Below, in pieces: positions 3,115 to 30,913 of a stretch of DNA of 64,000 nt. Both the position numbers and the translations under genes were made by a program. Numbering within the stretch: the first letter of the stretch is position 1; every line of letters starts with the position of its first letter. Origin of the DNA: a virus (lineage: Duplodnaviria > Caudoviricetes); the IMG/VR virus record IMGVR_UViG_3300028380_000482, positions 43,564-107,563 of that record, one strand, 5' to 3'. Below the pieces are notes generated by a model. That model saw only the letters and a program-made list of their open reading frames with translations. It ran no database searches and had not been told where the DNA came from.

Positions 3115-3128
3115 GAGCTACGTCAGGT

Positions 3129-10805: not shown

Positions 10806-10806
10806 G

Positions 10807-11154: not shown

Positions 11155-11155
11155 G

Positions 11156-11974: not shown

Positions 11975-14900
11975 TTACTGGTAATACCGGGCGGACGCCC
12001 GCCGTCGCACCGTTGCTGCCGTCACAGGATTGAAGCTCGCTCCCATTTGCGCCCAACTCGCCGTGGTATTCCCAACCGTCCAATTCATCGTAACACTCGA
12101 TCCCGTCGACGGTTCAGTCGACATGCTCCCTTCGACGTTACTTGATTCATTCGGATTCGCGGCAGTGGTTTGATTGACGCCAATCCCGGTTTGGAGCGGT
12201 CCGACGGCGAGGTTGGTCAGCGAGTTCAGCGCCGTCACACAATCGACCACGAGGTCTCCGCTGGCACTTCCAGTGACAGTGATGCCGGGGGGCGTGCTGC
12301 TCGTGCCCGTGCCGATCACCGCCGTATCGAACGGGGTGGTTGGGCTCACGTCTTTGAGAAAGAGAATCCCGCCGACGAGAAACTGATTAGTCGTGTTGGC
12401 CTGCATGGTAAAGGCATGTGGGCTGCCGTCACAGGTCGGATTGAGTTGATAGTACAGTTGGGCAAAGGTGCCGTTGTTCCCGGCCTCTTGAGCTGGTCCC
12501 CCAGGAACTACGGTCATATTCACACTATTCCACTGCGGCAGATTGAGTGTGATCGCCGAGGCCCCCGCCTTGCGGGTCGACAGACACGCCACGGCGACGA
12601 CATTGGTACTGCCACTGGGGCAGGTCGCGTTCACCGTCTGGAGGGCCATCGTCGCGGTTACGCCGCTATTCATCGTGACTGGCGTCCCGATCACAGAGGG
12701 GCTGGTGAGCGTCGTTGTCACGTACTCATAGGCACCGATGTCATAGGTGCCGTTTTGCGGACGCGTGGTGCCGACGAAATCGGTGGTCACGACCGATGAT
12801 ACGAGACTCGATCCTTGATCGATCGCGGGTGAGCCGACGAGGAGCGCAAAATTCCCCACCGCCGCATTGGCAAACGTCGGATTTCCCACCACGGCGCAGC
12901 CCGTGCCTGCGACCCCACAGAGATTCTGCGTGAACACTGTTCCTGTCCCCGTGTTTACGTTGGTCGTGGTGTTCTGATAGCAAATATTGTTGCGGATGAG
13001 CGCGGCACTTTGCGGGCTCTCAATCAGCATACAGCGTCCCCCGCCCGACTTCAGATTGTTCCAGATGGTATTGTTATAGATTTGATTATTGGTCCCGCCA
13101 AAGGCCAGCCAGAGTCCGTCGCCATTGGTATTATAGATCAGATTGTTATAGAACTGGCTGTTATCTCCAGACCCCAGGAGGATGCCATAATCAATATTAT
13201 TGCGAATGGTATTATAACGATAGATATTTCCGCTCACGCCACCCGTACCGAGGTAGGTATCAATCCCCGCCCGCCCGTTATCGTGGATGTCGTTATACTC
13301 GACAATCGAGTTGGAGGCGGTGATCCACAGTCCTGGCACGGTCGTGCGCGCATGGTGAATGTTGCAATGATCGATGAGGATCTCGGTCCCATTAGCGTAG
13401 ATCAAGCCGGTCGGGCTGGCGGTGACCCCGCCGTTCATAATTTCGGCATTGGTAATCTGCATGTGGCCGCTGGTGGCATTGAAGCCGCCGAGTTTATACC
13501 CCTCGCCGGTGGCAGCGGTCGCATCGCAGTTGATCCCGTCAAAAATAACGTACTGCTTGACACTGGTCGTGCCTAATGTCACACAGCGCGTGCCCGCCCC
13601 ACCGCTCGGCTTGAGCCACACCGAAGCGCCAGGGGCGGCGCGGACTTGTAAGGCATTCGCCCAACTGGTGCCGCCGTTGACGCTCTCATTTAAGTGTTCG
13701 GCATAATCGCCCGCCGCAATCTGTACGATCGAGCTTGACCCGGCTCCGCTGCCGGTGCCGATACAACCAAAGGCAGCAGTGATCGTCTGTTTAGGAGTGC
13801 CCGGATTCTGCGCCGCCGTACAGTCATTGCTATTACTCCCAGTTGTGGCGACATACAACGTCAGCGGCCCGCCCGTGCCCGTGGTAAACGACCAGACGGC
13901 GTCCGCCACCAGCGCATTCCCAGCAGAATCCTTAACCCCACTCGCCCCGCTCAGCACCGTCACGGTGTAGACCGTGCTGGCCGCAAGCGGACTATTCGGC
14001 GTAAGCAGTGCCGTGACCTGCCCCCCAGTATAGGATACCGTTGCTGGAATGGTCGTGAGCGCCGGATTTTTCAGCAGGATCTTGGTATTGGTGATGGTGG
14101 CGCTATCCATCGTCTCACTAAAGGTGACGGTCACGGCTGCCGTCAGGGGAACGCCAGTGGCGCCGTTGACTGGCGCTTGCCCGGTCACGGTGGGCGGCGT
14201 CGTGTCCGCCGTAGTAAATTCATAGGCCCCAATGTCGAACGCGGAGCCTTGGGGTCGGAACGTCCCTTCGAAATCACTCGTCAAGCCAAGCGACGTGAGA
14301 TTAAACCCCTGATTCACGGCGGCAGTGGAGGAGGCTTGCAAATGGAAGTCATCCGCAGCGGCGTTGACAAAATTGGGGTTGGTAGAAGAGTTATTACTCT
14401 GGGTAATGGTCGCAGAACTTCCACCGTTCACCACGCTATTCGATCCGGCATTGTTCCAACAGATATTGTTGCGCACCAGTGCGGTTCCCGAAGTCCCAGC
14501 CCCAATGTGAATACAGGCCCCATTCACGTACTGATCGCCCACCGTCCCGTAAATGGTATTGTTATAGATGGAGATATTCGACACGTCATAGTTGCTGGCA
14601 ATGCCTGCGCCGGTATTCCCATAGACCAAATTGTTATGGACCAGGGTGCCGCTGCCTTTGGTGATCATAATGCCGACGCCAACCTTGCCACCGGGAATTC
14701 CATTCGCCCACACGCTGTTATAGCGGGCAATCACGTTATTGGTGTATCCGGCAACACTGGAATTCCAAATGTCGATGCCGACGCTGGCGCTGTGATGGAC
14801 ATTGTTATACTCAAACAGATTGTTCGCGGCGCTGACGTAAAGCGCGGGCGGAAAATCCGCACCAGCGGGGAAATTTGCCCAGTTCCCATTGTTCCCGATT

Positions 14901-15490
14901 TCGTTGTTCAGATATTCATTGCAGCAGCCAGAGAGCGGATCAGTGGTGTTGGTGGTATTGAGCACGGCGCTCATCCGCGCCCGTTTCAGCGTATTGTTCT
15001 GTATGCGAATATGATCGGCCCGGTTGAAAATTCCGTCAATTTTAATCAAATGCGAGCCGTAGTTCGGGTCGCCCAACGAGTGCCCGCCAAGACCATCAAG
15101 GGTGAGATTCTGCAAAATAATATAGCGCTGCGCGGTCGCCCCCTGACCAAAGGTGAAGATTGCACTCTCGACCGTCGGGTGTTGGGTGAGGGTGGCGGTC
15201 TCTCCGGGATACGACATAATCGTGACGGGCGTGCTCCACGAGGTCCCGGTCGGGACATTTTCAAGATGTTCGGCGTAAGTCCCCTGCCGAATGTAGAGGG
15301 TATCTCCGGGTGCGAGACACGTGACACCGGACGCGACGGTCAGCTTGGGCGTTGCGAGGGTTTGTGCCGTCGCGCAGCTCCGCGCATCGCTGCCTCCAGT
15401 TTGCGCCACATAATAGTTGGCCGCTTGCGCAGAATGTCCCCACAACAGAGAGAACAGGACGAACACCCAGACGAGTGTGAATTTTGTCAT
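11975..15490 (-). CDS. signal-peptide protein with two right-handed beta-helices, an Ig-like domain and a C-terminal domain (spike/adhesin/depolymerase-like)
   Basis: Signal peptide ...HSAQA; duplicated YVA..GS..C...PK.T modules; NN.IY.N repeats; two RPQ..DIGAYE ends; Ig-like DTTPPTV...VTFSE. Confidence 0.8.
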   Translation of the reverse strand: MTKFTLVWVFVLFSLLWGHSAQAANYYVAQTGGSDARSCATAQTLATPKLTVASGVTCLAPGDTLYIRQGTYAEHLENVPTGTSWSTPVTIMSYPGETATLTQHPTVESAIFTFGQGATAQRYIILQNLTLDGLGGHSLGDPNYGSHLIKIDGIFNRADHIRIQNNTLKRARMSAVLNTTNTTDPLSGCCNEYLNNEIGNNGNWANFPAGADFPPALYVSAANNLFEYNNVHHSASVGIDIWNSSVAGYTNNVIARYNSVWANGIPGGKVGVGIMITKGSGTLVHNNLVYGNTGAGIASNYDVSNISIYNNTIYGTVGDQYVNGACIHIGAGTSGTALVRNNICWNNAGSNSVVNGGSSATITQSNNSSTNPNFVNAAADDFHLQASSTAAVNQGFNLTSLGLTSDFEGTFRPQGSAFDIGAYEFTTADTTPPTVTGQAPVNGATGVPLTAAVTVTFSETMDSATITNTKILLKNPALTTIPATVSYTGGQVTALLTPNSPLAASTVYTVTVLSGASGVKDSAGNALVADAVWSFTTGTGGPLTLYVATTGSNSNDCTAAQNPGTPKQTITAAFGCIGTGSGAGSSSIVQIAAGDYAEHLNESVNGGTSWANALQVRAAPGASVWLKPSGGAGTRCVTLGTTSVKQYVIFDGINCDATAATGEGYKLGGFNATSGHMQITNAEIMNGGVTASPTGLIYANGTEILIDHCNIHHARTTVPGLWITASNSIVEYNDIHDNGRAGIDTYLGTGGVSGNIYRYNTIRNNIDYGILLGSGDNSQFYNNLIYNTNGDGLWLAFGGTNNQIYNNTIWNNLKSGGGRCMLIESPQSAALIRNNICYQNTTTNVNTGTGTVFTQNLCGVAGTGCAVVGNPTFANAAVGNFALLVGSPAIDQGSSLVSSVVTTDFVGTTRPQNGTYDIGAYEYVTTTLTSPSVIGTPVTMNSGVTATMALQTVNATCPSGSTNVVAVACLSTRKAGASAITLNLPQWNSVNMTVVPGGPAQEAGNNGTFAQLYYQLNPTCDGSPHAFTMQANTTNQFLVGGILFLKDVSPTTPFDTAVIGTGTSSTPPGITVTGSASGDLVVDCVTALNSLTNLAVGPLQTGIGVNQTTAANPNESSNVEGSMSTEPSTGSSVTMNWTVGNTTASWAQMGASFNPVTAATVRRRASARYYQ

Positions 15491-16781: not shown

Positions 16782-16798
16782 TTAGGATCTCCTTGGGG

Positions 16799-17311: not shown

Positions 17312-17324
17312 TGGTTCCTCCTCT

Positions 17325-18214
17325 AACTCTTCACGAGAGGCTGCCTCACAAACTGTGTGGCATTTGAAAAATGGTGGGGATGGGTTATAGTAGAGGGAGT
17401 CGTCTTACCGATGCTGACAACACCGGTAAGACAAGCACCACCATGAAAGGATACTTCACGATGGAACCTTCCTCTCGTTCTAGCAAATCCAATCCCGAAT
17501 TGACAGGTTTGACAAATCGCATGAAGGCTATCAAAGCCTACAATGCGAAAAAGTTGGCCGTGCCTGCCTATGTTCTGTCTAAGATCCCGGTTCCCCCTAA
17601 ACAGTGTATTGCTGAAGGATGCGAGAAGACGCGGTTTGCACGTGGGTTGTGTAGTACACACTACACCCGCGCCGTGCGTCGAGAAACTCTTCCGACCATC
17701 AGGGTTCGTCACGTTGATCCTACCGCCATTGTTATTGATCCTATGGAAGCCTCGTGGCTGGCCGGGTTCTTCGATGGGGAAGGGTCGATTTCTATTACCA
17801 AATGCGAACCAGGAAACTCGTTTCGACGTACTCCGGCGTTCAACTTGGTTGTGGCGATGGGAAACACAGACGAAACCGCTGTCCGGGCATACTGTTGTAG
17901 TTTTGGCGGGGCCGTTATTCCCCGACAAAGTGCGACCCCTAGTCGCCGAAAAATGTGGTATTGGAGCGCAGGACAGTGGAACGCCTTGCGATTTCTCAAC
18001 ACTCTTCGTCCTTATTTGCGAGTTAAACATCAACAGGCTGACGTTGCCGGACTTTTTATGGCAACCTTTCTTCCTTCGGGTTGGGGATGGGCTAAGCCCG
18101 TACCGCCAGATCTCATCGAACAGCGCCGTTGTTTGTATTTCCGTATGATGGAACTGAATAACGGTGTTGCGTGGCGTAAGCATATAGATTCACAAAAAGT
18201 TATCAACTCTTCAC
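17325..18214. mobile_element. free-standing LAGLIDADG insertion bounded by the 10-bp direct repeat AACTCTTCAC
   Basis: Repeat at 17325-17334 and 18205-18214; both copies encode VKS-stop on the - strand. Confidence 0.65.
17364..17460 (+). promoter_or_regulatory. promoter and structured leader of the LAGLIDADG gene
   Basis: TTGAAA-16-TATAGT; 12-bp hairpin GTCTTACCGATG-CTGACAA-CACCGGTAAGAC; small hairpin over the AAGGA RBS. Confidence 0.55.
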
Positions 18215-18237
18215 TACGACATACTCCGCGCTCATAA
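17461..18237 (+). CDS. LAGLIDADG homing endonuclease with N-terminal Zn finger
   Basis: WLAGFFDGEGSISI; LRPYLRVKHQQA; CIAEGC...RGLCSTHY. Confidence 0.88.
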   Translation: MEPSSRSSKSNPELTGLTNRMKAIKAYNAKKLAVPAYVLSKIPVPPKQCIAEGCEKTRFARGLCSTHYTRAVRRETLPTIRVRHVDPTAIVIDPMEASWLAGFFDGEGSISITKCEPGNSFRRTPAFNLVVAMGNTDETAVRAYCCSFGGAVIPRQSATPSRRKMWYWSAGQWNALRFLNTLRPYLRVKHQQADVAGLFMATFLPSGWGWAKPVPPDLIEQRRCLYFRMMELNNGVAWRKHIDSQKVINSSLRHTPRS

Positions 18238-19198
18238 ACACGCTCGAAACCCCTACGCTGAGCGCCCCATTAAAGGCGGTGTTTTCTGAGATGATTCTTC
18301 GCGACGGGCTGTAGTTCTCTCCACCACCGTTCGCTGCTGCCGCGAGGTAGGCAAACGTGGTCGCGCCGTCTTTCAAATCTACCCGTGTGAGCGTCGCGCT
18401 CGTGTTATAGGACTTGACCGTGCGGAGCATGATCGACTTATTTGCTCCTGGCGCCGCGACAATCGCGACATCCCCCGTGCCAGTGAGAGTTGCCACGGCC
18501 GGCAGCGACGGGGCATTAGAGCGTGAGCCATCGAGCACGGGTAACGGCCAGGGGTTCTTTTTACACTCAATGCGCAGTGTGGTCGTCAATGTTCCGCCGT
18601 TCACATACAGGACCCGGAAGAACTCACCAAACAAGTTGACGCTAAAAGAGGCGGCTTGTCCGGCGGCGACGTTCCGGTAATCGGCAATGTCCCAGTTGGT
18701 ACCGTCCACACTTTGTTCCACCGCCAGTCCATCGGCAGCCGAGGCGTGCGAAGACAGCACCATCACAGTGACACTGGCGTAACTGAGCGTACTCTCGCCC
18801 GTGCCGGTGAAGGTGGCCCCGCCCGCTAAGTTTGTGGTACTGCTATTCGCCGTTGAGATTACTGCTGGTGCCACTATATCTATCCAACTTGGGTTTTGAC
18901 TGCTTCCGTTTGTACTGAGCACCTGCCCAGCACTGCCGGGACCGAGCGGCACCCATGCACTTGCACTGCGGTAGAGAATCGATCCTTGGGTTGCAGAGAG
19001 CGTATCCAAAATGGCAGACGCCGCCGCGTTGATCGTCGCATCCCCTGTACCCGCATCGGCACCCGTAGCACTGATTGTGATGCCAGTTCCTTGAATAACT
19101 TTCGCCAGTACGGCAGAGCCGGACGTGGTGACATCGAGGTCAGACCGTTTGACTTCTCCCGCGCCAATTTGGGGTGAGCGAACCTGTGTAATTGCCAC
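18203..19198 (-). CDS. fibre-like virion protein
   Basis: GTGITISATG, QGSILYR...GQVLSTNG fibre motifs. Confidence 0.75.
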   Translation of the reverse strand: MAITQVRSPQIGAGEVKRSDLDVTTSGSAVLAKVIQGTGITISATGADAGTGDATINAAASAILDTLSATQGSILYRSASAWVPLGPGSAGQVLSTNGSSQNPSWIDIVAPAVISTANSSTTNLAGGATFTGTGESTLSYASVTVMVLSSHASAADGLAVEQSVDGTNWDIADYRNVAAGQAASFSVNLFGEFFRVLYVNGGTLTTTLRIECKKNPWPLPVLDGSRSNAPSLPAVATLTGTGDVAIVAAPGANKSIMLRTVKSYNTSATLTRVDLKDGATTFAYLAAAANGGGENYSPSRRIISENTAFNGALSVGVSSVFMSAEYVVVKS

Positions 19199-19214
19199 AA
19201 TGGAGTGTGCCCCT

Positions 19215-20366
19215 CTACGCGACCGCGTAGCTCACGCGGATTTTATCCCCGGTCTGCAACACAACGAGTGACGTGATTACTGCCGCCGCAATGGTATAGT
19301 CATTCCCTGCCCCTGGTTCCATGAGCAAACCGTTGACGAACACCTCCTCACTCCCGGCAATCGGCGTATTCGCTAGCGTGTAAGAAGTATTTGATCCATT
19401 CACTAATCCTGTGGGCGTTTCCCGCACAATGCGGCGTCCCGAGGTCACTTTCAGCCCGGTCGAACTACTTGTGAGTGAGGTGCCGTCGAGCTTCACCTGC
19501 AACGCGTCAGTGACAATTTCTATACCGCCCGCCGCCGCCACATTCACAGAAAGTGCAGTACCTGCGCCACCGGCGAGACCATTCCCCGCTACGGCGGCGG
19601 CAATCTGCGTAGCCGTGATTCCGGCGTCGGCGACTTTCGCACCGGTCCCACTCGTTGTGAGAGTCGTGCCATCGAGCTTGATTCTGACGCCGGTCGAAGT
19701 TTCTAATCCCCCCGTAGTATTGAGATTCACTGAGACGGCATCGGCAGCCACGGTCAGCGAGGTATCCGCAGTGACTACATCAAACGTCGAGCCCGTGAGG
19801 GTGAGCCCCGCCCCGGCTGAATAGGACGTTCCGCCTGCGAACAGCGTGAAGACGAGGGGAGTTGTACCAAGGGTAATCGGATCATTGGTAGTGAGGATGA
19901 ACTGCTTGTCGCCGTTCGTCGTCCCTTCGTTCACCCACATCATCATCCCGCCTTTGACTTCGGCGGACACATCGGCATCAAGAGCACGGGTCCACGCGCC
20001 CGAGGCCACGAGATAAATGCCGTTATTCTGACCTGTGCTTTGGTCTTTGACTAAACACCGATCATTGACGCTGAGGGCGACGCCATCAACCGTTTGCGTG
20101 CCCGAGAGGGTAATGTTCGCCGTGGTGGCTGCCCGCACCGGATCTTTGACAAGCACACCTTGCCGAGCAGCATCGACCTGGGCGACGGTTGCGGCATCGG
20201 TCCCCGCAACGCCTGCCAGCAGGTTAGTAATCTTAAACCCACCGTGTGACTGATCGGCGGTGAAGGCGTTGACACCGTCCCCTCTGATAATGCCACTATC
20301 CACGCGGGTCTTATCAATCGAGGCAGATTGTATCTGTCTGTTCCCATTTATTTGGCTGAGCGCCAT
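19215..20366 (-). CDS. tail/head fibre protein
   Basis: VRAATTANITLSGTQTVDGV...LVKDQ..NGIY domain; AGxGL shaft repeats; C-terminal ETPTGLVNG...VFVNGL domain. Confidence 0.8.
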   Translation of the reverse strand: MALSQINGNRQIQSASIDKTRVDSGIIRGDGVNAFTADQSHGGFKITNLLAGVAGTDAATVAQVDAARQGVLVKDPVRAATTANITLSGTQTVDGVALSVNDRCLVKDQSTGQNNGIYLVASGAWTRALDADVSAEVKGGMMMWVNEGTTNGDKQFILTTNDPITLGTTPLVFTLFAGGTSYSAGAGLTLTGSTFDVVTADTSLTVAADAVSVNLNTTGGLETSTGVRIKLDGTTLTTSGTGAKVADAGITATQIAAAVAGNGLAGGAGTALSVNVAAAGGIEIVTDALQVKLDGTSLTSSSTGLKVTSGRRIVRETPTGLVNGSNTSYTLANTPIAGSEEVFVNGLLMEPGAGNDYTIAAAVITSLVVLQTGDKIRVSYAVA

Positions 20367-20408
20367 ATTCTATTTTCCTTCTGAAGAAGAACCTGTTACA
20401 CTGATTAG

Positions 20409-20470
20409 GCGGCTAGAGAAGGCCTCTCGAACACTCAGTACCTCGCTGAGTTGCCGCGCACACCACGAGG
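20409..20470 (+). ncRNA. UA/GAA three-way-junction leader motif, copy 1
   Basis: GCGGC-UA-GAGA(loop)UCUC-GAA-C-ACUCAG(UACCUCG)CUGAGU-U-GCCGC; the loop can pair with downstream CGAGG. Confidence 0.6.
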
Positions 20471-20490
20471 GCATCATGAGGAGATGCGCC

Positions 20491-21099
20491 ATGTCTATCT
20501 TTCTTAATTACGCTACCCACCAAGCCGAAAAATTGCGTGTATTGTACCCCTTTCAACTCACGCCGAACGGGTGGAAATGGGTTGCGGTCTGTGAATGTGG
20601 GACAGTAAAAATTGTTCTGGGAGCCCATTTGAAAGTGCTGAAGAGTTGCGGATGTTGGAAACGTCAATATTGGCAGGCCCGCATTACCACGCATGGCCAA
20701 GGAGGAAATGGGAAAGCCAGAAGCAAAGTCTATAAAACGTATTTGCAGGTTAAAGAGCGCTGCGAGAATCCGCGCACCCAGCACTATCCTCTCTACGGAG
20801 CACGCGGCATCCGCTGCGAATTTCAGTCGTTTGAAGAATTTTATGCAACTTTGGGAGATCATCCGGGCACTGGCTATAGTATTGATCGCTACCCGAATAG
20901 AAGTGGCAACTACGCTCCTGGTAATGTCCGTTGGGCGACACTGGCAGAGCAGAACAATAACAAACGTACAAACATCAACATCACCTACGACGGAAGAACG
21001 CAGACCCTTGCGCAGTGGGCGCATGAAAAACAGATGAGCGTCCCTCGTCTCCACTGGCAATACTACCAAGGGTGGTCTTACGAGCGAATGCTGAGTTAG
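20491..21099 (+). CDS. HNH-type homing endonuclease, antisense to the late arm
   Basis: CECG...SCGC, THG, KERCENP...YGARGI, SIDR...GNYAPGNVRWAT..QNNN. Confidence 0.88.
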   Translation: MSIFLNYATHQAEKLRVLYPFQLTPNGWKWVAVCECGTVKIVLGAHLKVLKSCGCWKRQYWQARITTHGQGGNGKARSKVYKTYLQVKERCENPRTQHYPLYGARGIRCEFQSFEEFYATLGDHPGTGYSIDRYPNRSGNYAPGNVRWATLAEQNNNKRTNINITYDGRTQTLAQWAHEKQMSVPRLHWQYYQGWSYERMLS

Positions 21100-21131
21100 C
21101 TGCGTCGCTGGCATGCTAGTTGCCTTCCTGG

Positions 21132-21506
21132 TTATTGATAGACAAATTCAAGAACATCGCCCCCGCCGGGCACGAACCCCGTGACAGTTACTGTGCTTCC
21201 TGCCACTGTGAAATTATCGTTCGTCTGCCGTAGTCCGTTCACATACATAGACACGGTATTCGCAGCCGGAGTCGTACTGAGGACAAAGACCGTCTGATTT
21301 CCACCGAGCGTGAACACATCTTCATGCCACGGAACCGAGGTGCCGCTTCCTGGTGCTCCGGCTGGTCCGACCGGCCCCTGCGGCCCTGGCGGTCCGACAA
21401 TCCCCTGTGAGAGCAGCTCTGTGACGACAATCTCATGGACGACGGTATCGCCGTTGCTGGTCGAAAGAGATTCAGTCGTGACTTGTTGAATAAGAACATC
21501 ACTCAC
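21132..21506 (-). CDS. collagen-like repeat fibre adaptor
   Basis: GPPGPQGPVGPAGAPG; C-terminal YVNGL domain resembles that of 19215..20366. Confidence 0.75.
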   Translation of the reverse strand: MSDVLIQQVTTESLSTSNGDTVVHEIVVTELLSQGIVGPPGPQGPVGPAGAPGSGTSVPWHEDVFTLGGNQTVFVLSTTPAANTVSMYVNGLRQTNDNFTVAGSTVTVTGFVPGGGDVLEFVYQ

Positions 21507-21889
21507 TATGGCCTCGTCACGATCAGGTGAATATCCACCAGTCCTTTGCCGTCCGTCAGCTTGACTACGTCCTGCCCAGTCGGGAAGCTATACTTAATAT
21601 CGAATACGGCATCACACACGGGCGCGAGTTCCGCCGTCTGTTCTTCGGTCAGACTCAGCTCCAACACGCCCGGATCTATCAACACCAACAATCCATCGGT
21701 TGCCGTTGGGCTGGTCGAAAACCGCAGCAGCACCGTCTCAGAGGCTAAGGTCGGGCGCACTTTAATTTCCGCCGTCGTACCAGCCGGAAACGGAACCAGC
21801 ACCCCCTCGCTTTTCCATGTGATCGTCTCCGCGTAGGACGCACCAATCAGGATCGAGAGCCGTAAAGCGGAGACAATCTGTTCGGTCAC
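21506..21889 (-). CDS. BppU-like fibre adaptor
   Basis: GASYAETITW...LSLTEEQTAEL...VFDI pattern. Confidence 0.6.
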   Translation of the reverse strand: MTEQIVSALRLSILIGASYAETITWKSEGVLVPFPAGTTAEIKVRPTLASETVLLRFSTSPTATDGLLVLIDPGVLELSLTEEQTAELAPVCDAVFDIKYSFPTGQDVVKLTDGKGLVDIHLIVTRP

Positions 21890-24321
21890 TCCTCCTCCCT
21901 GCTTCCCTCATCATTTTTCTTTGGGGGTGCGACCGGCGGAGACGTTGCACTCGGCACAAACCCAAACATCGAATCATCGAGCCCCTTCCCACGGCGCAAG
22001 TAACTGAGCCGCGTCGGCCAAGGAATCGTCGATACAATTGGCGTGGCCGCTCTGGCAGCCCCCTTCTCGCTACTAGAGGGTGTGAGCGCCTCATACACTT
22101 GCGGCTCGTTATTGGTTTTGTGAAGTCCCGAGCCTGACACACTGCCGCCAATCCCCACGACAATGTTGTCTGACTCGCCGGTAATTTGCAGAATCCCTGG
22201 CGGCGTATTGCCTGGGACTTCCGCCATCTTCCCCACCCCGAAGAGGCCGATATTCTGCGAGTCGTGAATCAGGAGCGTCGGGCTGCGGCCTTCGCGCTTC
22301 ATGCCGAAGATCCGCACATTCTTAGCGCCCGTGATTTCATTGCCCGCGTGTGGAATCACGCACATCTTGCCGAACTCAGTATTGAGCCCGTAGAAGCTGA
22401 GCGGCTCCGTCGTCCCGTTCACATAGACTTGGCGTGAGTCGTTGTTGCGATCGACCATCTTTTGCGCGACCACCTGGAGTCCGTAGTGCTTGCCACCGCC
22501 GCCGCCGTTAAACCACACGGCGTAGCGTTTCTGATTGACGGGCGCCCCTGAAGCAAAGCAGTTCGCAAGGAAGGGGGCATCCAACGAGAGCCCAAAGGTC
22601 AAGGACTTCCGCCCCGCCCGCCAGCGCAGGTAATACATCCAGTCGTTGGCGATCGGCGCATTACGGAGAAACAACGTAAAGTCAGTGGCCGTAGTCGTAG
22701 CGGTCGGATCGTTGTCAGTGAGGAGCATGGGGACAGGAGACGGCGGTTGCCAGGACTTGTGAGAGGCGATGATCGACTTATGGAGGCCCGGCCCCATCAG
22801 GACGGTGTTCTTCTTGAGCCGAATGAGGTTGCTCGTGTAGATGGTCCCACGCGGGAGCCACACGCGCCCATGTCCGGCTGCTGCTGCGGCAAGAATGGCA
22901 TCTTGCAATGGCTTGGTGCTATCCGGCCCAGTATTGCCGACTTCCGGGTCGGTGCCGAGATAGCCGGTCGTGGGGCCGCCGTGCTCTTTGAGTTGGACAA
23001 AGGGGCCATCTTCGAAACTGGGAAAGTGACCGGGGACGTGTCGCGAAAGCAGATCGCCGACCGGCGGCCCTGCGTTCGCCATGATGTCTTGAGCGACAAT
23101 CGGCGCACTGCGTAACACACCGTCCACCACACTCCGCGATTCGAGCTTGTCGGTATTCTTCACGTAGGTCGGGAAAACCGAGGCTTTATTGCTGGCGTCA
23201 GCTTGGGTTTGGTCGTTATAGGCAAACTCCGCGATCCGGCTCCACGTGCCTTCCCCACAGATGACCGGGCCTCCGCATGCCATTGTCGCCCCACCCTTAT
23301 TGCGAAAGAGCTTGGTCGTACCCGTGACGAAGACATTGTGTATGTACAGATCCCGCCCGTTGGGATTATCAATCGCAATCATGCCCTGGGCAGCGCCCCG
23401 CATCTCAATGGTTCCGTCATAGAGGACCATCCCCGTCTTCGCTTCAATGGCCGGGGCAGGCGTCGCGGCAGTGATCTTGAATCCGACAAGCACAATCGGC
23501 GACGCGTCGGTGCCTTCCGCCGCCGATATTTTTTGGTCAAGCAATTCGACGCCTGCGGCCATCGTCCCGTTGGGCGTGAACGGAATGCTGCTCCCGATGC
23601 GGATACCGTAATCGCCGCCGACACATTTTAGTTTCGCGGCGGGTCCGGTGCGCCCGGGCAGCCCGTAGAAGCACGCGAGACTGCCGGTGGCCTCAATCTG
23701 TACATCCCGCATGGCGGAATCTTGCGCGGCAGAGAACGCCAGCCCGATAGCACCCGCGTTCCCATTGGTGTTGATACGGATGCCCTCCAATATTTCTCCA
23801 AAATTGGATTTCCCGAAGTCGTTGAAGTTAGCCGGAAGGCCGAGTGGGTCGAGTGGTTCCGCATTGGCTTTGGCATTCTGGTTGGCGGCTTGAAATGCAC
23901 GCCACGCCATGACGGGGCGGGGACTACTCTTATTGGTAAACCCAGTCACGGCGGAGGTTTTGAGTTTCAATTCCGGCCAGCCCTGCGGACAATCCGACTC
24001 TCCCCGAAACACATGGTTATGCGGGTCCTGTGGCAGTGGCCCGCCCTTTTTCCAATTCACCCATTCATAGAGCTTGACCGTGTTCGTGACAGCGTAGGTC
24101 CCACATTCAAGATAGGTGGCGAGCTGGTTCTCGTGCGCGTCCTCGATACAGGTATTGAGCCCATTGGTTGAATCCCCGCTAAAGTCCTTATTAACGCCGG
24201 GATATTTGTTGCAGACCAACAGCCCAAGAAGAAAGCGAGAGTCTGTCTTGGCGGAGTCGGGAATGGATGCGTGCGCCTGAACAGAAAAAAGCAGTAAGAA
24301 AAGGCTGATAATTAACGCCAT
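21886..24321 (-). CDS. signal-peptide pectate-lyase-like (GH55-like) tandem beta-helix protein
   Basis: Signal peptide ...VQAHA; two modules GDST.GLN...YLECGTYAVTNT and DSTKPLQDAI...VWLPRGT. Confidence 0.75.
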   Translation of the reverse strand: MALIISLFLLLFSVQAHASIPDSAKTDSRFLLGLLVCNKYPGVNKDFSGDSTNGLNTCIEDAHENQLATYLECGTYAVTNTVKLYEWVNWKKGGPLPQDPHNHVFRGESDCPQGWPELKLKTSAVTGFTNKSSPRPVMAWRAFQAANQNAKANAEPLDPLGLPANFNDFGKSNFGEILEGIRINTNGNAGAIGLAFSAAQDSAMRDVQIEATGSLACFYGLPGRTGPAAKLKCVGGDYGIRIGSSIPFTPNGTMAAGVELLDQKISAAEGTDASPIVLVGFKITAATPAPAIEAKTGMVLYDGTIEMRGAAQGMIAIDNPNGRDLYIHNVFVTGTTKLFRNKGGATMACGGPVICGEGTWSRIAEFAYNDQTQADASNKASVFPTYVKNTDKLESRSVVDGVLRSAPIVAQDIMANAGPPVGDLLSRHVPGHFPSFEDGPFVQLKEHGGPTTGYLGTDPEVGNTGPDSTKPLQDAILAAAAAGHGRVWLPRGTIYTSNLIRLKKNTVLMGPGLHKSIIASHKSWQPPSPVPMLLTDNDPTATTTATDFTLFLRNAPIANDWMYYLRWRAGRKSLTFGLSLDAPFLANCFASGAPVNQKRYAVWFNGGGGGKHYGLQVVAQKMVDRNNDSRQVYVNGTTEPLSFYGLNTEFGKMCVIPHAGNEITGAKNVRIFGMKREGRSPTLLIHDSQNIGLFGVGKMAEVPGNTPPGILQITGESDNIVVGIGGSVSGSGLHKTNNEPQVYEALTPSSSEKGAARAATPIVSTIPWPTRLSYLRRGKGLDDSMFGFVPSATSPPVAPPKKNDEGSREEE

Positions 24322-26849
24322 GTGCCTCCGGTCACCATGCCGCTCACGCGATCACTGCGGGGATCGACGATGCGCGCCCGTGGCATATTCGCGGCATTTG
24401 GGTAAGTGTTGAGGGGATTGCCGCCCGCTTCACGGACATAGAAGTAGATATTCTGCCCTTGTGTGAGGGTATCTTTGAATTTGAGGGCGTAAATACATTC
24501 GGCCTCACTCCCCGCCCCCGCACTCCCGGACATAGTGACGAACGGAATACTGTTGAAACTTTGAATCACCCCGCAGTCGATATTGGCGGTCTCATCACTG
24601 GCTAATAACTCCACACCGGGGATGAGAGAGCCGATGCCCAGCGCGGGCGTATAACAGACGGGGGCAGTACAGTCGTCTGTGACGGGGACGGCAGCAGTTT
24701 GCACGGTGGGGTCGGCAGGATCGACTTGATAGTAGAGCGGGAAGGGAACCGTCACATGACTGTTGACGGTATTGCGAATCTTGACAATGAGCCGGGCCTG
24801 CCCACCCGCGCTCGGCACCAGTTGCGCGTTCAAGGTGTTATAGAGCGGCGCGGTTGCGGCCCCGCCGACATTGGACTGCCACTGATACCTCGTCGTGGCA
24901 AGGATCGGCGTCCCACCATTTCCGCCCCCGAGGTTATTGGTGGCAGTGATTGCAGGAGAGATGGAAAGCGCGGGAATCTTCGGTCCCCCGTTAATGGTTG
25001 GTGTCCCTGCCGTGACAAACCCCGTTGCCGCATTGTAGGCCACAGTCACGACTTGGGAACTTGTCGTAATCGTGTTGGTCGCAAAGGTAAAGTGAAAACA
25101 CCGCAGCCCGGTAATAGTCGCAGGGCCGGTCGGAGTTTTCTGTACGCCAGCAACAACAAACGTCCAGCCTGTGAGGCTGGTTCCTTCCATTGGGATTGTG
25201 CCTTGATCATCTGCGTTCCAACAGACATCAACCTGATCGGCAGCGAATACTTTGGCTTGCAGCACGGTCGGGGCACGATGGACGTAGAACACATAGCCGT
25301 CATCGTTCACGGCATTCGCTCCAATCGTGACGACATTGCCACTTTGGCTGACGTAACCAGTGACACAGGTCGCCGTCGGGGTGCCATTATCTTGCACTTC
25401 CAAGAAATAGAAGGTCGTGCATTTGGCATCGACAATCTTCTCCGTACTGAGCAGGTTGAAGGTGAGGCCGGTGCCGCTATGCTTGGTAAAGAAGAGTTTG
25501 TGATTCTGTTCGTAGTCTTTGTGCCGACTCCACGCCATCTGCTGTGAGATAAAACTATTGGTGCTGGTATAGATATCCGTGCCTTCGGTCCACGTTCGCC
25601 CAGTGGCACCCCGTAAATTATCCCACGAGGGAATGGCCCGCAGCAAATAGATAGAGGTCAAGGCAAAGGTCGGATTGAGAGGCCCAATGAACCAGCCCCC
25701 CCACGCACTGATGCCCGTCGCGCCCCCAGAGGCCGCCGCCCGCCCTTCGATCAGTGCAGCTCCAGGGTAGCTCCGCTGGTGAAAGGTCGGTGCCGGTGAG
25801 GTGTTGGTGGGCGAGAGCCCAGTTTGCACCGCAGCGACGGGAACAGGGGCGTAGGTGGTCGTGTCCTGTGTTCCGCAGCCGTTCGGCCACGGGTCGTCGA
25901 GGTAGCCAAGGCAGTCGCAGCCGTCACAAGCCCCGTTGCCACCTTTTCCACCACTGGACTCATTAAAGAGTAATTGAAAATTGAGGTCGGGGTCTCCGTA
26001 GACAGGGAAATTGTCCATCGTATACGGATTGCCACTCATTCCCCCAAACGTGAGCCCGCCCGCGACAACGGCAGCGGCCATTTGGGTCCGCAAGTCCTTG
26101 GTGAATTTTTTCCGCCCGACTTCAAAACTGGCATTCGGGCTGGTCGCATTGGGGCAGTTCACTACAATCGGTTGCCCAGTAATAAACCGCGTTTCGTCAA
26201 GATATAATCCTGAATAGATTTTTTTGCCGCCGAGGTTGTCTTCGTGTAATTTTTTCACTCGCAGTTCTTGGTTAATATTCATTTGTATCCCGGCATCGTT
26301 GCGAAAATTGGGAACAAAAATGACTGCGTTCTTATTTTCCGCATGATAGAGCTGATATTTGAACGTGCCGGGATGGGCTTCGTCGTAGAGGTCGTTATAG
26401 GCCGAGGTCATCCCCCAAGCGGTCATACAGAGGGCCGTCTGCATGTCATCTAACACCTGCGAGGCCAGCGGAGAATTGAGCGGGAGGAAGCCCGCGCCGA
26501 TAGCAATCTTCGTGGGCGAGGAAAATCCACTACTATCACACGAGACCCCTGATCCCGGTTCGATACACGGATTATTGAGCCGCACCCATTTGGCGGCGCG
26601 GGCGTTGTTGGAGTTATATTGGACTTTGAGTCCTGCATCGACCGCCGCCGAGGCTTTGGCGGTGGCGTAGGGTTCACCGATGATCCACTCATAGCCAAAT
26701 TGTTTAGCAATGTTGGTAAACTTCGCCCAATCACTATTGATCTTGCCATCATCGAGGACCGCAAACTGATTACGGAAGTCACCGGGAACAGCCGCAGCTC
26801 GGCTAGACAGGCTTAAAACCACAAAAAGTGAGAAGAGAAAGGCGTACAT
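24312..26849 (-). CDS. signal-peptide multidomain protein (possible glycoside-hydrolase-like barrel plus beta-sandwiches)
   Basis: Signal peptide ...SRAAA; YSGLYLDE; many paired Cys. Confidence 0.65.
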   Translation of the reverse strand: MYAFLFSLFVVLSLSSRAAAVPGDFRNQFAVLDDGKINSDWAKFTNIAKQFGYEWIIGEPYATAKASAAVDAGLKVQYNSNNARAAKWVRLNNPCIEPGSGVSCDSSGFSSPTKIAIGAGFLPLNSPLASQVLDDMQTALCMTAWGMTSAYNDLYDEAHPGTFKYQLYHAENKNAVIFVPNFRNDAGIQMNINQELRVKKLHEDNLGGKKIYSGLYLDETRFITGQPIVVNCPNATSPNASFEVGRKKFTKDLRTQMAAAVVAGGLTFGGMSGNPYTMDNFPVYGDPDLNFQLLFNESSGGKGGNGACDGCDCLGYLDDPWPNGCGTQDTTTYAPVPVAAVQTGLSPTNTSPAPTFHQRSYPGAALIEGRAAASGGATGISAWGGWFIGPLNPTFALTSIYLLRAIPSWDNLRGATGRTWTEGTDIYTSTNSFISQQMAWSRHKDYEQNHKLFFTKHSGTGLTFNLLSTEKIVDAKCTTFYFLEVQDNGTPTATCVTGYVSQSGNVVTIGANAVNDDGYVFYVHRAPTVLQAKVFAADQVDVCWNADDQGTIPMEGTSLTGWTFVVAGVQKTPTGPATITGLRCFHFTFATNTITTSSQVVTVAYNAATGFVTAGTPTINGGPKIPALSISPAITATNNLGGGNGGTPILATTRYQWQSNVGGAATAPLYNTLNAQLVPSAGGQARLIVKIRNTVNSHVTVPFPLYYQVDPADPTVQTAAVPVTDDCTAPVCYTPALGIGSLIPGVELLASDETANIDCGVIQSFNSIPFVTMSGSAGAGSEAECIYALKFKDTLTQGQNIYFYVREAGGNPLNTYPNAANMPRARIVDPRSDRVSGMVTGGTWR

Positions 26850-29800
26850 TTATTCGCTCGTGCTATTCACGGTATAGAAGACTTTCGGCGTGGCGTTGAT
26901 GCGCACGTTCGCCATTCCAACGCCGGTCGTTGATAGTGTGGAGTTAATATCACAGTGCATATAGACGTGGTCGCCTGCTGCGGGCGTGTTCGTCAGGGTA
27001 ATAGGGGGACTCGTCGCTTGTTCTTCCCGACCCGTCGCCGCGAGTCCAAAGGTAATGAGCTGTTCATTGGCGACGGTGGTTGATCGCGCCGCAATCACTT
27101 CATTGTCGCTAATCGCTTGCCCCGAGCAGTGCATGGCGACGTTGCCTGCCGGTGAGCCTGCAACACTGTAGAGGGTAGGGCGAACCGTGACAGTGCCCGC
27201 ATTCCAATTGAGGGGCATGGTAAAGTCGAAATCGAAGCCGTCGTTGTCATTGGCGCCGCAGGTGAACACCCCGACTTTCGGCTTTCCGCTTGCCACCACT
27301 TCTTCGGTGTAGACGCAGCCACCAAATTCTTTGGCCCCGACTTCCACCGATTTGAGCGGCTGGGCAGCGGCAGTGGGATACTCGACTTTGCCCGTCACAT
27401 GATTTATCCGCATGTGGGTCAGATTACCAAGCTGAAAATTGATGTCATAACCAGGAGCAGTGGAAGGAGCCCGCACGTTGACATCCCCGTCAGGCTTCGT
27501 CACTAACTGGCACCCGCTGACCGGGTCGCAGTACAGCGTCATGGTCATATCGGTGGGATCGTTACAGTCGCCGTCTCCGGTAATGTCGGTACAGAACACC
27601 ACACCGTTGGCGAGAGAGCTAAGGCCGAGAATTTGCTTGCCACCGTTATAGGCTTCCTGCAAACTCGTGGCCCCTACAGTGTCGGTATCGACAGCAGGTA
27701 AGGAGATCGAAGTGCCAGCCGCGCACCCGCCAGTCGTCGGGCAGTAGAACAACAAGGCAGGATCGGGGGCGGACGCGGGTTGCATACACGTTTGCCCGGC
27801 AGAGAGCGCAACCGTAGTACAATCGGCGGCGGTAATACTCACGGTTCCTGTCCCAGTTCCACAGGCTGCCCCCGTTCCGGCAAAGTTGCCACTAGAATTA
27901 ACCGTAACGCACTCGTTGGCGGGAATCGTTTCGCTCATACGGAGGAGAGAGCCCGAGCCGGTCGGAGTTTTGAGAGACAGGGTATCAAGTACGCCGCTGG
28001 CCGTCTGTTTCGTTGCCCCCAACACGTTCAACTCGGTTTGCGTGGCAATCTGCGGATCGAGCAGGGTTGCTACTTGGGTTGCGGTGAGGTCTTCAGGATC
28101 GCCCGTTGCGGCTGTGACCCGGCCTTTGATCGTGGCGGTTGCCATATCAGCGGCTTTGGTATTGGTCACCGCGTTCGCGGCAATCGTCGTGGCTCCATCA
28201 CCAACTGAGGTGACATCGCCGGTATGGTTCGGAGCGACATAGTTATTGGCGCCGTCGGCGACGTTGATGATCGACCGGACTTGGGCGGGAGTCAGGTCTT
28301 GTGGATCGCCCGTCCCAGCAGCCATGCGTCCTTTGATCGTAGTAGTGGCAATATCGGCAAGTTGCGAATTGGTAACGGCGTTGGGTGCGATGGTCGTGAC
28401 GGTACCCGCTGAGGTGACATCTCCGGTATAATTCGGATGAACGTAATTATTCGCCCCATCGGCGACGTTGAGTAGCGTTCGGACTTGGGCGGGAGTCAGG
28501 TCTTCGGGATCGCCGGTTCCGGCTGAGACACGGCCTTTGAGCAGGCCAGAGGCCATATTGGCAAGGGTCGTATTGCTGACCGCATCCGGCGCCACACGCC
28601 AGTCACTCGCCGCGACTACGACATCAATCTGATTTTTCAGTCCGGTCGTCACCCCGCCGCCCGTCGCGCACGGACCGCCGAATGAGGTGAAGTTTCCGCT
28701 GGCATCCACTTTCACACAGGCGTCGGTGACAAATGCCCCGGTACTCCGCCGAAGGTCCGTCCCCGTTCCAATAATATTGAGGCCACCAAGGAGCGTCAGG
28801 TCATTATCAGCAACTTGTTTCTCGCTATCGAGTTCGGCCAGCGCAGCTTGGACTTGATTCGAGCCAATGGTTCCAGCGGGTATGACACTGATGGCGGACG
28901 CGGCGTGCGCTGCACTGGTCTGATTGATATGCGCCGCGAGTTCGGGTTCCGTCACAAACGACGGATCGAGCAGCGTGACGACCTGCCCGACAGTGAGGTC
29001 TTCAGGATCGCCAGTGGTCGCAGACACACGACCTTTAATCGTGGCGGTCGGCACGTTATTCAGTTTCGCGTTGGTGATGGCATCGGGAACCACGACCCAC
29101 GACGAGCCCGCACCGCCGCCGCCGGTGACAGCGATGTCCCCTTTGGTCCCGTCTACTACAGCACCAATGCCGCACGGCGCACCGACGCTACTCAAGTTAC
29201 CGTTGCTATCAACCTTGACACAATCGTTCGTCACAAAACTGCCAGTCCAGAGCCGAATATCCGCCCCGGTTCCCTGGAGAGTTTTCGTCGCCAGCGGGGT
29301 GAGGGTATCAGCATCGAGCGGCTGCAACGTCGCCACAACGGCATTGAGTTCAGCTTGCGTCGCGACATCTGCCCCGTTACTGAGATTCCCGGAGGCATCA
29401 GTTGTGACGTAATGCCCCGCCGTGAAACTGCCGGTACTGCGGCGCAAATCGCCCCCCGTACCGATGATCGTCAGTCCTGCCACGGTCGTGAGGTCAGGAT
29501 CGGACGGCTGAAGCCCCGTAATGGCTGCCGTCAGTTCGGACGGAATGACGACATCGAAACATGCCTCAACCGCGCCCATCGTATCCACGCCAAGGGGCGA
29601 AAAACCTGGGGAGCAGTTCCCGCCATTGTTGACGAGTGCGGCTGCCGTATTTGGGACAAAGGCGTTGAGTTCGGCCTGCGTCGCTACATCTCCACCGCTT
29701 ACGAAGTTGCCAAAGGTGTCCGTGGTGACGTAGTGGCCGATAGTAAAGGTGCTCGCGCTCCGGCGCAGATCACCGCCCGTGCCAATGATTTGCAATCCGG

Positions 29801-30506
29801 CCAGTATGGTGAGTTCAGGATCGGAGGGTTGCAGCCCGGCGACGGCGGTGGTGAGTTCAGACTGCGTCGCGAGTTGCGGATCTAAAATGGCCGCGACTTG
29901 GGCGGCGGTCAAATCTTCCGGGTCTCCGGTTCCTGCGGTCGTCCGCCCTTTGATAGTCCCATTTGCCATGTTCGCCAGTTTGGCGTTTGAGACGGCATCG
30001 TTGACAATGGTCCAGTTGGTGACCGCATCGACCACATTGATGTCTGCTTTGATACCAGTAGAAACGGTATTATCTCCATCGAGGAGATCGGCGGGCACGT
30101 TTTTGAGCTTGGTCCAATCGACGGGATTGGTCGGCGTATTGATGGTACCGGAGAGCGTGAGCCCGGTCGTCACGGCATCGAGTTCAATCTGACTCGCGAC
30201 ATCGAAACAGCCTTCGACAATCCCGCTGGCATCGATCCCGAGGGGGGCACTTCCAGCGACACAGTTGGCTCCATTCGCCGCAAGTGCTGCGGCGGTACTC
30301 GCCGCGCCACCTGCGGCCCCTTCCACGCGTACCCTGAGCCGTCCGGTGGTCGGATCGAAGTCACAGACGATGCCAGTGCCGACACAATCCATTTGAAAGG
30401 CCGTCCGCAAGAACGTCCCTTCGTCCATCATCCGCATGGGGGGCAGTTCAGCGGAGACGGGCGCAGCTAACAGAACAAGTAGGGAAAGCAGGAAGAGGAA
30501 TATCAT
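26850..30506 (-). CDS. signal-peptide long fibre protein with modular repeats
   Basis: Signal peptide ...APVSA; 5 x KGR...TGDPEDLT..QV; ATQ.EL repeats; paired-Cys units such as CVKVD..GN......C. Confidence 0.8.
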   Translation of the reverse strand: MIFLFLLSLLVLLAAPVSAELPPMRMMDEGTFLRTAFQMDCVGTGIVCDFDPTTGRLRVRVEGAAGGAASTAAALAANGANCVAGSAPLGIDASGIVEGCFDVASQIELDAVTTGLTLSGTINTPTNPVDWTKLKNVPADLLDGDNTVSTGIKADINVVDAVTNWTIVNDAVSNAKLANMANGTIKGRTTAGTGDPEDLTAAQVAAILDPQLATQSELTTAVAGLQPSDPELTILAGLQIIGTGGDLRRSASTFTIGHYVTTDTFGNFVSGGDVATQAELNAFVPNTAAALVNNGGNCSPGFSPLGVDTMGAVEACFDVVIPSELTAAITGLQPSDPDLTTVAGLTIIGTGGDLRRSTGSFTAGHYVTTDASGNLSNGADVATQAELNAVVATLQPLDADTLTPLATKTLQGTGADIRLWTGSFVTNDCVKVDSNGNLSSVGAPCGIGAVVDGTKGDIAVTGGGGAGSSWVVVPDAITNAKLNNVPTATIKGRVSATTGDPEDLTVGQVVTLLDPSFVTEPELAAHINQTSAAHAASAISVIPAGTIGSNQVQAALAELDSEKQVADNDLTLLGGLNIIGTGTDLRRSTGAFVTDACVKVDASGNFTSFGGPCATGGGVTTGLKNQIDVVVAASDWRVAPDAVSNTTLANMASGLLKGRVSAGTGDPEDLTPAQVRTLLNVADGANNYVHPNYTGDVTSAGTVTTIAPNAVTNSQLADIATTTIKGRMAAGTGDPQDLTPAQVRSIINVADGANNYVAPNHTGDVTSVGDGATTIAANAVTNTKAADMATATIKGRVTAATGDPEDLTATQVATLLDPQIATQTELNVLGATKQTASGVLDTLSLKTPTGSGSLLRMSETIPANECVTVNSSGNFAGTGAACGTGTGTVSITAADCTTVALSAGQTCMQPASAPDPALLFYCPTTGGCAAGTSISLPAVDTDTVGATSLQEAYNGGKQILGLSSLANGVVFCTDITGDGDCNDPTDMTMTLYCDPVSGCQLVTKPDGDVNVRAPSTAPGYDINFQLGNLTHMRINHVTGKVEYPTAAAQPLKSVEVGAKEFGGCVYTEEVVASGKPKVGVFTCGANDNDGFDFDFTMPLNWNAGTVTVRPTLYSVAGSPAGNVAMHCSGQAISDNEVIAARSTTVANEQLITFGLAATGREEQATSPPITLTNTPAAGDHVYMHCDINSTLSTTGVGMANVRINATPKVFYTVNSTSE

Positions 30507-30541
30507 GTGGAAGTATCCCGTTGCGTGTGAAAATCATGGTC

Positions 30542-30913
30542 TCACCAAACATTTATTTTGAGATTGACCGTCCCCGCCGTTTCGAGAATGCCGCAGAATT
30601 GCCCCGCCCATCCTGAGTCGATGGTGACCGTGACGGACGCGCCAGGATAGAGCGGCTCCCCAACCGGGGTCGTAATTAAGGTCGTACAGTCCCCTTGGAT
30701 CTTGGTAATCAGTAAGACGGTATTGGAGGACGAGAGCGAGTAGAACGTCACCCCTTTGCGAATCGAGGGGACGAGCGCAACAGCGGTCGCGGTATTGGTG
30801 AGGGCGGTGATCGTCGGGACTGAGGCCCCGTCTTTATAGGCGGGCGGCACTTGTCCCGAGGCAAGCAGCGCAGAAGAAAAAAAGAGCAGGGAGCAAACCA
30901 GGATTCGGAACAT
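30542..30913 (-). CDS. signal-peptide small beta-sandwich protein
   Basis: MFRILVCSLLFFSSALLASG; GEPLYPGASVTV; two Cys in the mature part. Confidence 0.7.
   Translation of the reverse strand: MFRILVCSLLFFSSALLASGQVPPAYKDGASVPTITALTNTATAVALVPSIRKGVTFYSLSSSNTVLLITKIQGDCTTLITTPVGEPLYPGASVTVTIDSGWAGQFCGILETAGTVNLKINVW

Follow-up and report, generated by a model that had tools for sequence, protein, structure and literature searches.

A predicted Sec-exported, cysteine-paired glycanase and fibre module in the tail-fibre region of a soil siphovirus

The stretch analysed here, hereafter the window, is the right-hand 64 kb (64,000 nucleotides) of a 107.6-kb IMG/VR contig (IMGVR_UViG_3300028380_000482) that is ~93% complete and derives from an uncultured soil phage, a metagenomic siphovirus with its late operon on the minus strand. 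Identical or near-identical phages are present in several metagenome assemblies. Between the tail tip and the lysis cassette, a fibre region of 19 kb contains five genes, P0001 to P0005, whose products total 4,168 amino acids (aa) and are predicted to begin with a Sec signal peptide. The original prediction had described five late open reading frames (ORFs) with a hydrophobic region followed in most cases by an AxA-type cleavage site, and all five lie on the minus strand where it had placed them. The genes and their domains are as follows.

30542..30913, minus: P0001, 123 aa; predicted signal peptide at about residues 1-18 (30860-30913); 2 cysteines (Cys) in the mature part
26850..30506, minus: P0002, 1218 aa; predicted signal peptide at residues 1-19 (30450-30506); repeat fibre with a Cys-rich C-terminal domain
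26853-27848, minus: Cys-rich C-terminal domain of P0002, residues 887-1218
24312..26849, minus: P0003, 845 aa; predicted signal peptide at residues 1-20 (26790-26849)
25335-26786, minus: TIM-barrel glycoside-hydrolase-like domain of P0003, residues ~22-505
24315-25337, minus: beta-sandwich/Ig-like C-terminal domain of P0003, residues 505-845
21886..24321, minus: P0004, 811 aa; predicted signal peptide at residues 1-18 (24268-24321), then pectate-lyase/rhamnogalacturonase-like beta-helix modules
11975..15490, minus: P0005, 1171 aa, last gene before the lysis cassette; predicted signal peptide at residues 1-23 (15422-15490), then a beta-helix, a Big_5 Ig-like domain, a second beta-helix and a C-terminal domain, CTD2
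11978-12724, minus: CTD2 of P0005, residues 923-1171

Predicted export signals and paired cysteines

The N-termini, with an arrow at the predicted cleavage site, are MFRILVCSLLFFSSALLA↓SG in P0001 (junction LLA↓S), MIFLFLLSLLVLLAAPVSA↓EL in P0002 (VSA↓E), MYAFLFSLFVVLSLSSRAAA↓VP in P0003 (AAA↓V), MALIISLFLLLFSVQAHA↓SI in P0004 (AHA↓S), and MTKFTLVWVFVLFSLLWGHSAQA↓AN in P0005 (AQA↓A). In all five, an uncharged hydrophobic core of 13-16 residues, not long enough to anchor the protein in a membrane, precedes small residues at positions -3 and -1. The assigned starts are backed by GGAGG/AGGAG ribosome sites (P0004 and P0005) or by abutment of stop and start codons (P0003), and no lipobox or twin-arginine motif was seen by eye in the five N-termini. 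Dual targeting from an internal start was considered and rejected, as only P0002 has Met codons right behind the signal, and its homologue does not conserve them.

Signal peptides were called with a rule of our own, which asks for an uncharged window of 10 residues with a mean hydropathy of at least 2.0, starting within residues 2-21, and for a -3/-1 small-residue site after this window. Applied to 100 non-overlapping ORFs of at least 100 aa from the whole genome, the rule returned 14 positives; those in the late operon are exactly P0001 to P0005, while those outside it are membrane components of a type IV secretion system (T4SS) and a few other secreted proteins.

The predicted export signals are kept in homologues, and this holds for the P0003 family, for proteins with the P0003 C-terminal domain, and for CTD2 proteins. 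Three homologues of P0003 (67, 56, and 47% identity) all keep the hydrophobic core and the small-residue motif; their first ~20 residues cannot be aligned, and the mature start, (D/E)FRNQ, is conserved. A profile search with P0003 across 1.84 billion representatives found 135 relatives, in which the two halves of the protein are separable modules: the C-terminal domain (505-845) also follows heads of other kinds, P0004-like in proteins of ~1100 aa and P0005-like, with a beta-helix, in proteins of ~690 aa. The signal rule is satisfied by 29 of the 33 N-terminally complete proteins carrying this domain, and the four signal-less ones look like truncated gene calls. The domain spans at least 50 clusters at 50% identity, and nearly all complete members have signal peptides.

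Elsewhere CTD2 occurs as stand-alone proteins of 255-275 aa, 10 of 11 with a signal peptide, in which the hydrophobic core varies freely and the junction AxA↓AP(A/V)VIGTPV is conserved; the domain thus gains a signal afresh wherever it has become a separate gene. The C-terminus of the CTD2 family bears a conserved basic motif, RRR-x(2-4)-P-(R/Q)-(Y/F)-(Y/L), found at 11978-12010 (minus strand) of the window and in the family members P0143-P0153. Most stand-alone members continue past this motif with an aromatic, proline-rich tail of ~20 residues, and P0005 ends at RYYQ. The motif or tail could be a sorting or docking peptide. The smallest protein of the five, P0001, has no family match and is 100% identical in a sister phage, L004.

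Every cysteine motif quoted in the original prediction (NCVAG..EGCF, DCVKVD..APCG, RSCAT..VTCL, NPCIE..VSCD, DDCTAPVC) is present, and a count bears out its remark that the interleaved signal-less neighbours starting at 19215, 18203, and 16290 have 0-1 Cys. The mature parts of the five proteins have a Cys density of 1.3-2.0%, against a median of ~0.3% for 12 signal-less tail and fibre proteins (Mann-Whitney p = 0.0045). One exception is a tail protein of 595 aa (34813-36600, minus strand), which has 17 Cys (2.9%) without a signal peptide, so the link between signal peptide and cysteines is strong but not absolute. This protein has a pectate-lyase-like N-terminal module and tail-spike PHROG matches.

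Covariation of cysteines was followed in 137 family members aligned to the P0003 profile. The counts are 9/0/0/12 for the pair C311-C325, 21/0/1/51 for C477-C495, 16/0/0/22 for C543-C584, 24/4/1/21 for C727-C732, and 36/0/0/14 for C759-C785. Within each of these five pairs the cysteines co-occur at phi 0.81-1.0, and separate pairs are uncorrelated or anticorrelated with one another. Such covariation within pairs that are mutually independent points to disulfide partners, as common ancestry alone would not give this pattern. In P0002 the 24 Cys fall into 12 local pairs, mostly 6-19 residues apart, and the P0002 homologue of an SU10-type podophage contig, L005, has 30 Cys in 15 pairs; a C-x6-C element is all that the mature N-terminal regions of P0002 homologues have in common. 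In cultured Rhodobacter phages, fibre-region proteins with the P0002 repeat lack both signal peptide and cysteines. Among P0004 relatives, eight signal-bearing members all retain C37, C58, and C73, but V, A, and S occupy these positions in P0006, the only signal-less homologue, which comes from a T4-like contig.

Predicted folds and recurrence of the block

A first AlphaFold2 model of P0003, built from an alignment of 4 sequences, had a predicted local distance difference test score (pLDDT) of 35 and was replaced by one built from 52 sequences, with a pLDDT of 85.3 and a predicted template-modelling score (pTM) of 0.79. In the latter, residues 22-525 match (beta/alpha)8 polysaccharide hydrolases at Z 10-13. 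These matches include GH66 dextranase and CITase (Z 12.4-13.0), the GH168 endo-fucanase (Z 12), members of GH191 and GH114, and the hydrolase domain of PelA (PDB 5tcb; Z 10.4); the VIA matches reach Z 12-13 over 283-337 residues. A Foldseek search with the same model places multi-domain GH13 enzymes on top (E ~1e-8), and for residues 525-646 the match is an Ig-like domain from SbsC, an S-layer protein (Z 11.3). Sequence identity to all fold matches is 6-12%, and no single glycoside hydrolase (GH) family stands out. P0003 is confidently modelled as a TIM-barrel glycosidase with beta-sandwich domains. Its type of TIM-barrel domain is also present in a dockerin-bearing cellular protein of 2268 aa.

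P0004 and P0005 have Pfam matches to Pect-lyase_RHGA_epim (PF12708), Beta_helix (PF13229), NosD (PF05048), and Big_5, by which they are classed as beta-helix proteins of the pectate-lyase type; the two beta-helices that flank Big_5 in P0005 are right-handed. In P0003, P0004, and P0005 alike, the catalytic module begins right after the predicted cleavage site, and an N-terminal particle-binding anchor of the tailspike type was not found in any of the three. The signal-less P0006 has LamG and FN3-like N-terminal domains. P0002 gave no S74 or other Pfam match. Comparison of the three C-terminal modules with hhalign detected no relationship among them, none of the three has a PHROG family, and BLAST of the exported proteins against the phage's own signal-less tail proteins found no significant homology.

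Blocks of the same kind recur in other phage backbones. L005 encodes four consecutive signal-peptide proteins, namely a P0002-like protein, a P0003 homologue, one of 161 aa, and CTD2; immediately downstream of these four genes come homologues of the window's holin-like genes. Three further SU10-type contigs (L013-L015) encode P0002-like, CTD2-like, and beta-helix-plus-C-terminal-domain proteins, all with signals, adjoining the adaptor gene. A prophage, L007, on a bacterial contig of 185 kb has signal-peptide proteins of 683, 1119, 157, and 265 aa, which are followed by homologues of the signal-less fibre genes g127, g124, g383, and g331 of the window; contig ERZ25039531 has the same gene order again, and in both the block is not beside lysis genes. 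All sampled contexts of the block are phage-like. Among deposited phages, no relatives of P0003 or P0004 were found and P0002 gave only repeat-level matches; scans of IMG/VR with P0003, the P0002 C-terminal domain, and CTD2 returned nothing or one weak locus.

Between the window phage and the near-identical L004, the block is the fastest-diverging part. Signal-less fibre proteins are 94-100% identical, P0002 and P0004 are each 89% identical, and P0003 is 67% identical, with 35-58% in the enzyme domain and 99-100% in the C-terminal domain. L004 also has four extra small genes between its P0004 homologue and g127 (L004:14956-16523) that are absent from the window; they encode an 87-aa lipoprotein-like protein (with …FLCGC…), a DUF1353 protein, and two proteins with membrane-like segments.

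Late operon, host, and other genes with predicted signal peptides

The remaining late genes of the window include the following.

59454-61256, minus: large terminase
57389-58795, minus: portal
48622-49581, minus: major head protein
37392-43409, minus: tape measure, 2005 aa
36610-37392, 34813-36600, 31469-34816, minus: tail-tip proteins
18203..21889, minus: lateral-fibre set without signal peptides (g127, g124, g383, g331), 0-1 Cys each
9880..11957, minus: lysis cassette, directly downstream of P0005
11670-11957, 11515-11673, minus: two small holin-like membrane proteins
10188-10805, minus: endolysin (phrog_181, E 1e-24)
9880-10191, minus: i-spanin-like protein with an N-terminal transmembrane segment and a Pro-rich tail

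Within the lateral-fibre set, g127 is a weak LtfC-like match, below the Pfam cut-off, and g124 is collagen-like. The phage's own endolysin has no signal peptide. A scan for promoters and terminators showed no enrichment over shuffled sequences and so gives no evidence for separate transcription units; no tRNAs were found. Two ORFs on the opposite strand, 17371-18237 (plus) and 20260-21099 (plus), break the minus-strand fibre operon; in other assemblies, the genes called at these two sites encode 258 and 202 aa. Outside the late operon, an ORF at 2961-3533 (plus) opens with a perfect tandem peptide repeat, (QAPRQRV)n. The adjacent ORFs at 3680-4273 (plus) and 4344-5165 (plus) have signal-peptide-like N-termini (MKAF...), each followed shortly by a TYNPT motif, and no significant family match.

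The phage genome encodes a P-type T4SS set that lies just left of the window (in L010, G000:C1:21000-40900) and comprises VirB4/TrbE, VirB6/TrbL, VirB8, VirB9/CagX, VirB10/TrbI, VirB11, a coupling protein of the TrwB type, and an S26 signal peptidase of the TraF type; TrbE is only ~28% identical to its homologues on alphaproteobacterial plasmids. The phage T4SS genes (VirB9/CagX, VirB10/TrbI) and the spanin-like gene show that the host is a diderm, so Sec export means delivery to the periplasm. The flank of L007 is ~46% identical to genes of Rhizobium and Ralstonia. Of two scans of genome contigs, one found nothing and the other a single 6-kb contig in a Bacillota metagenome-assembled genome, which is not trusted as a sign of the host.

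Further proteins with signal peptides are encoded left of the window. One of 515 aa, at L010:56-1603 (plus), equal to genome positions 21055-22602, has galactose-oxidase/glyoxal-oxidase domains (Kelch and GO-like E-set) and is predicted to be a further exported carbohydrate-oxidising enzyme outside the late operon. Another, of 104 aa, lies ~2.4 kb from the window (genome 40890-41204, plus) and has a clear signal peptide, MKLLVVLLLLMTASVCDA↓A.

Candidate roles of the exported proteins

The conserved signals and the paired cysteines indicate that the five proteins are very probably exported and oxidatively folded. On what happens thereafter, we favour, at roughly even odds (about 0.5), a portable Sec-exported, disulfide-stabilised module of glycanases and adhesin that would be freed at lysis and act as free protein. 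This reading is preferred because no anchor domains were found, the proteins look like secreted enzymes, other receptor-binding proteins are present, and the block moves between unrelated tail types. Since signal-less tail-spike and fibre proteins are also encoded by the phage, receptor binding does not require the exported ones. The original prediction had proposed export, disulfide folding, and docking onto particles at or after lysis; its first two elements agree with the conserved signals and paired cysteines, but docking finds no anchor domain to support it, and the alternative offered alongside it, secreted depolymerases or adhesins, is the better fit for P0003, P0004, and P0005.

The module would consist of three enzyme-type proteins (P0003, P0004, and P0005), the Cys-stapled fibre or adhesin P0002, and the small accessory protein P0001. 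The five genes would be transcribed late, together with the tail-fibre genes, and their products would cross the inner membrane of the diderm host via Sec, shed the signal peptide, and fold with disulfide formation in the periplasm, a compartment separate from that of the virion. Lysis by the neighbouring holin-endolysin-spanin cassette would then release them, and as free, robust depolymerases or adhesins they may act on host exopolysaccharide (EPS), capsule, or matrix, either clearing a path for progeny or destroying the receptor on debris. Of these steps, we infer that the genes are expressed together late, that the proteins are in fact exported and cleaved, that lysis releases them, and that they work as free protein.

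Several observations weigh against this reading, and most of them would suit periplasmic pre-fabrication, in which the exported proteins oxidise in the periplasm and dock at lysis as outer fibres and depolymerase spikes, a possibility that we consider to be on the unlikely side. The genes lie inside the tail-fibre block, the usual place of virion parts, and are tightly coupled, in translation, to its signal-less genes. A T4-like phage encodes a distant P0004 homologue among its neck and fibre genes, a stretch of P0005 matches a PHROG annotated 'virion structural protein', and P0002 is a repeat fibre whose C-terminal domain resembles viral receptor-binding tips, a lead from a language model only. 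The divergence between sister phages is the fastest in this block, as is usual for host-range determinants, and the pattern of P0003, a variable head before a C-terminal domain that is 99-100% conserved, would also fit a docking handle, as would the sharing of one C-terminal domain by proteins with three different enzyme heads. The block moreover moves as a unit of fibre, CTD2, and enzyme proteins, and one might tentatively propose a two-compartment route by which tailed phages of soil diderms would make part of their adsorption apparatus outside the cytoplasm, with the fibre, lectin-like, and glycanase block pre-assembled in the periplasm and joined at lysis via C-terminal handles. However, no virion-anchor domain or docking partner was found in the five proteins, a complete signal-less fibre set is already present, and none of the three C-terminal modules belongs to a PHROG family. 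Since the siphovirus, SU10-type podovirus, and prophage backbones that carry the block differ in their tails, it is hard to see where a shared docking site would lie, and an enzyme followed by a beta-sandwich is a layout just as typical of carbohydrate-active enzymes that are secreted and free. The free-protein reading has a further point against it, in that the signal-peptide call rests on our in-house rule and on conservation, which leads to the question of whether the proteins leave the cytoplasm at all. Hydrophobic N-termini could be start-codon artefacts, membrane tethers, or assembly helices of cytoplasmic tail proteins, and three of the five lack a positively charged n-region. We regard this as highly improbable, given that the starts are backed by ribosome sites or coupling, that the cores are too short for a transmembrane helix, that dozens of clusters at 50% identity keep the AxA junction and the paired Cys, and that alternative Met codons just past the signal occur in P0002 only and are not conserved.

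Export could also serve remodelling of the envelope before lysis, with the enzymes cutting nascent capsule, EPS, or O-antigen from within, in the periplasm or at the surface of the infected or induced cell, which would destroy the receptor (resulting in superinfection exclusion and in no progeny lost on debris) or weaken an extra envelope layer and so let the lysis cassette complete its work. The exported proteins are of glycanase types, a further signal-peptide enzyme of galactose-oxidase-like type is encoded elsewhere in the genome, holins directly follow P0005 here and the entire block in L005, and there are cellular precedents in PelA (the fold match at Z 10.4) and WceF (PMC7949094). This explanation is nonetheless doubtful, as it leaves the fibre-like P0002 and the heavy disulfide stabilisation unaccounted for, an investment that suggests a long extracellular life, and as the block lies away from lysis genes in L007 and in the ERZ25039531 contig.

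Tailed-phage particles and their depolymerases are, by textbook account, made and assembled in the reducing cytoplasm. In the literature searched, no tail-fibre or depolymerase proteins with signal peptides, and no exported module of this kind, are described in tailed phages. Among the closest counterparts are virion-associated tailspikes of the P22 gp9 type (PMC5380687, PMC6966330, PMC6116005), which likewise have beta-helix or glycosidase modules, are encoded in the tail-fibre region, are shuffled as modules, diverge rapidly, and have host surface polysaccharide as the likely substrate. Known tailspikes, however, have an N-terminal particle-binding domain and no signal peptide, and fold in the cytoplasm, whereas in the five genes here the enzyme comes first, the conserved module is C-terminal, the Sec signal is conserved, and the Cys are paired. 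WceF of Pantoea stewartii, a Tat-exported tailspike-like EPS glycanase (PMC7949094), and PelA resemble the proteins described here in being exported, glycan-cutting proteins of tailspike-like or TIM-barrel type without a capsid-binding domain. Both act on the exopolysaccharide of their producer, and they differ in being single enzymes encoded in chromosomal EPS clusters, with WceF exported via Tat rather than Sec.

The MAT fibres of Bdellovibrio (PMC10769870) are phage-tail-fibre-like, have a signal peptide, are extracytoplasmic, and end in diverse adhesin tips, as may be the case here. They are, however, proteins of a cellular predator, with a ~130-aa beta-rich domain after the signal and often an S74 chaperone-protease; neither feature was found in the proteins of the window, the MAT family being compared by description only. 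The Sec-exported and signal-anchor-release (SAR) endolysins (fOg44 Lys44, P1 Lyz; PMC6116005) and the spanins are also late proteins that use host Sec and wait in the envelope until the holin fires, and P1 Lyz is under periplasmic disulfide control (PMC3556154). Those endolysins are small proteins of peptidoglycan lysis, whereas here the candidates are polysaccharide-type enzymes of 800-1200 aa and a fibre.

Shiga-toxin genes, situated just upstream of a lysis cassette, offer a precedent: they are transcribed late, and their product forms its disulfides in the periplasm and is set free when the phage lyses the cell. Lambda Lom (PMC12309495), as here, is an exported protein encoded among structural genes. 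Both Lom and Shiga toxin are small accessory 'morons' with host-directed or virulence roles, not a fast-evolving glycanase and fibre block of ~4,100 aa.

The fibre region of this phage thus devotes ~4,100 aa of coding capacity to proteins that appear built for export and disulfide folding, a capacity that is conserved, evolves rapidly, and moves from one phage type to another. Should the proteins work as free enzymes, soil-bacterial phages would secrete a dedicated, oxidatively hardened glycanase kit, which would matter for the turnover of biofilms and soil aggregates and would be a source of stable depolymerases. If they dock instead, tailed-phage assembly would have a periplasmic branch, a route undescribed for Caudoviricetes in the literature searched, and export would need to be considered whenever host range is predicted from 'tail fibre' genes. 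Whichever reading holds, pipelines that tag such genes simply as 'tail fibre' overlook testable biology.

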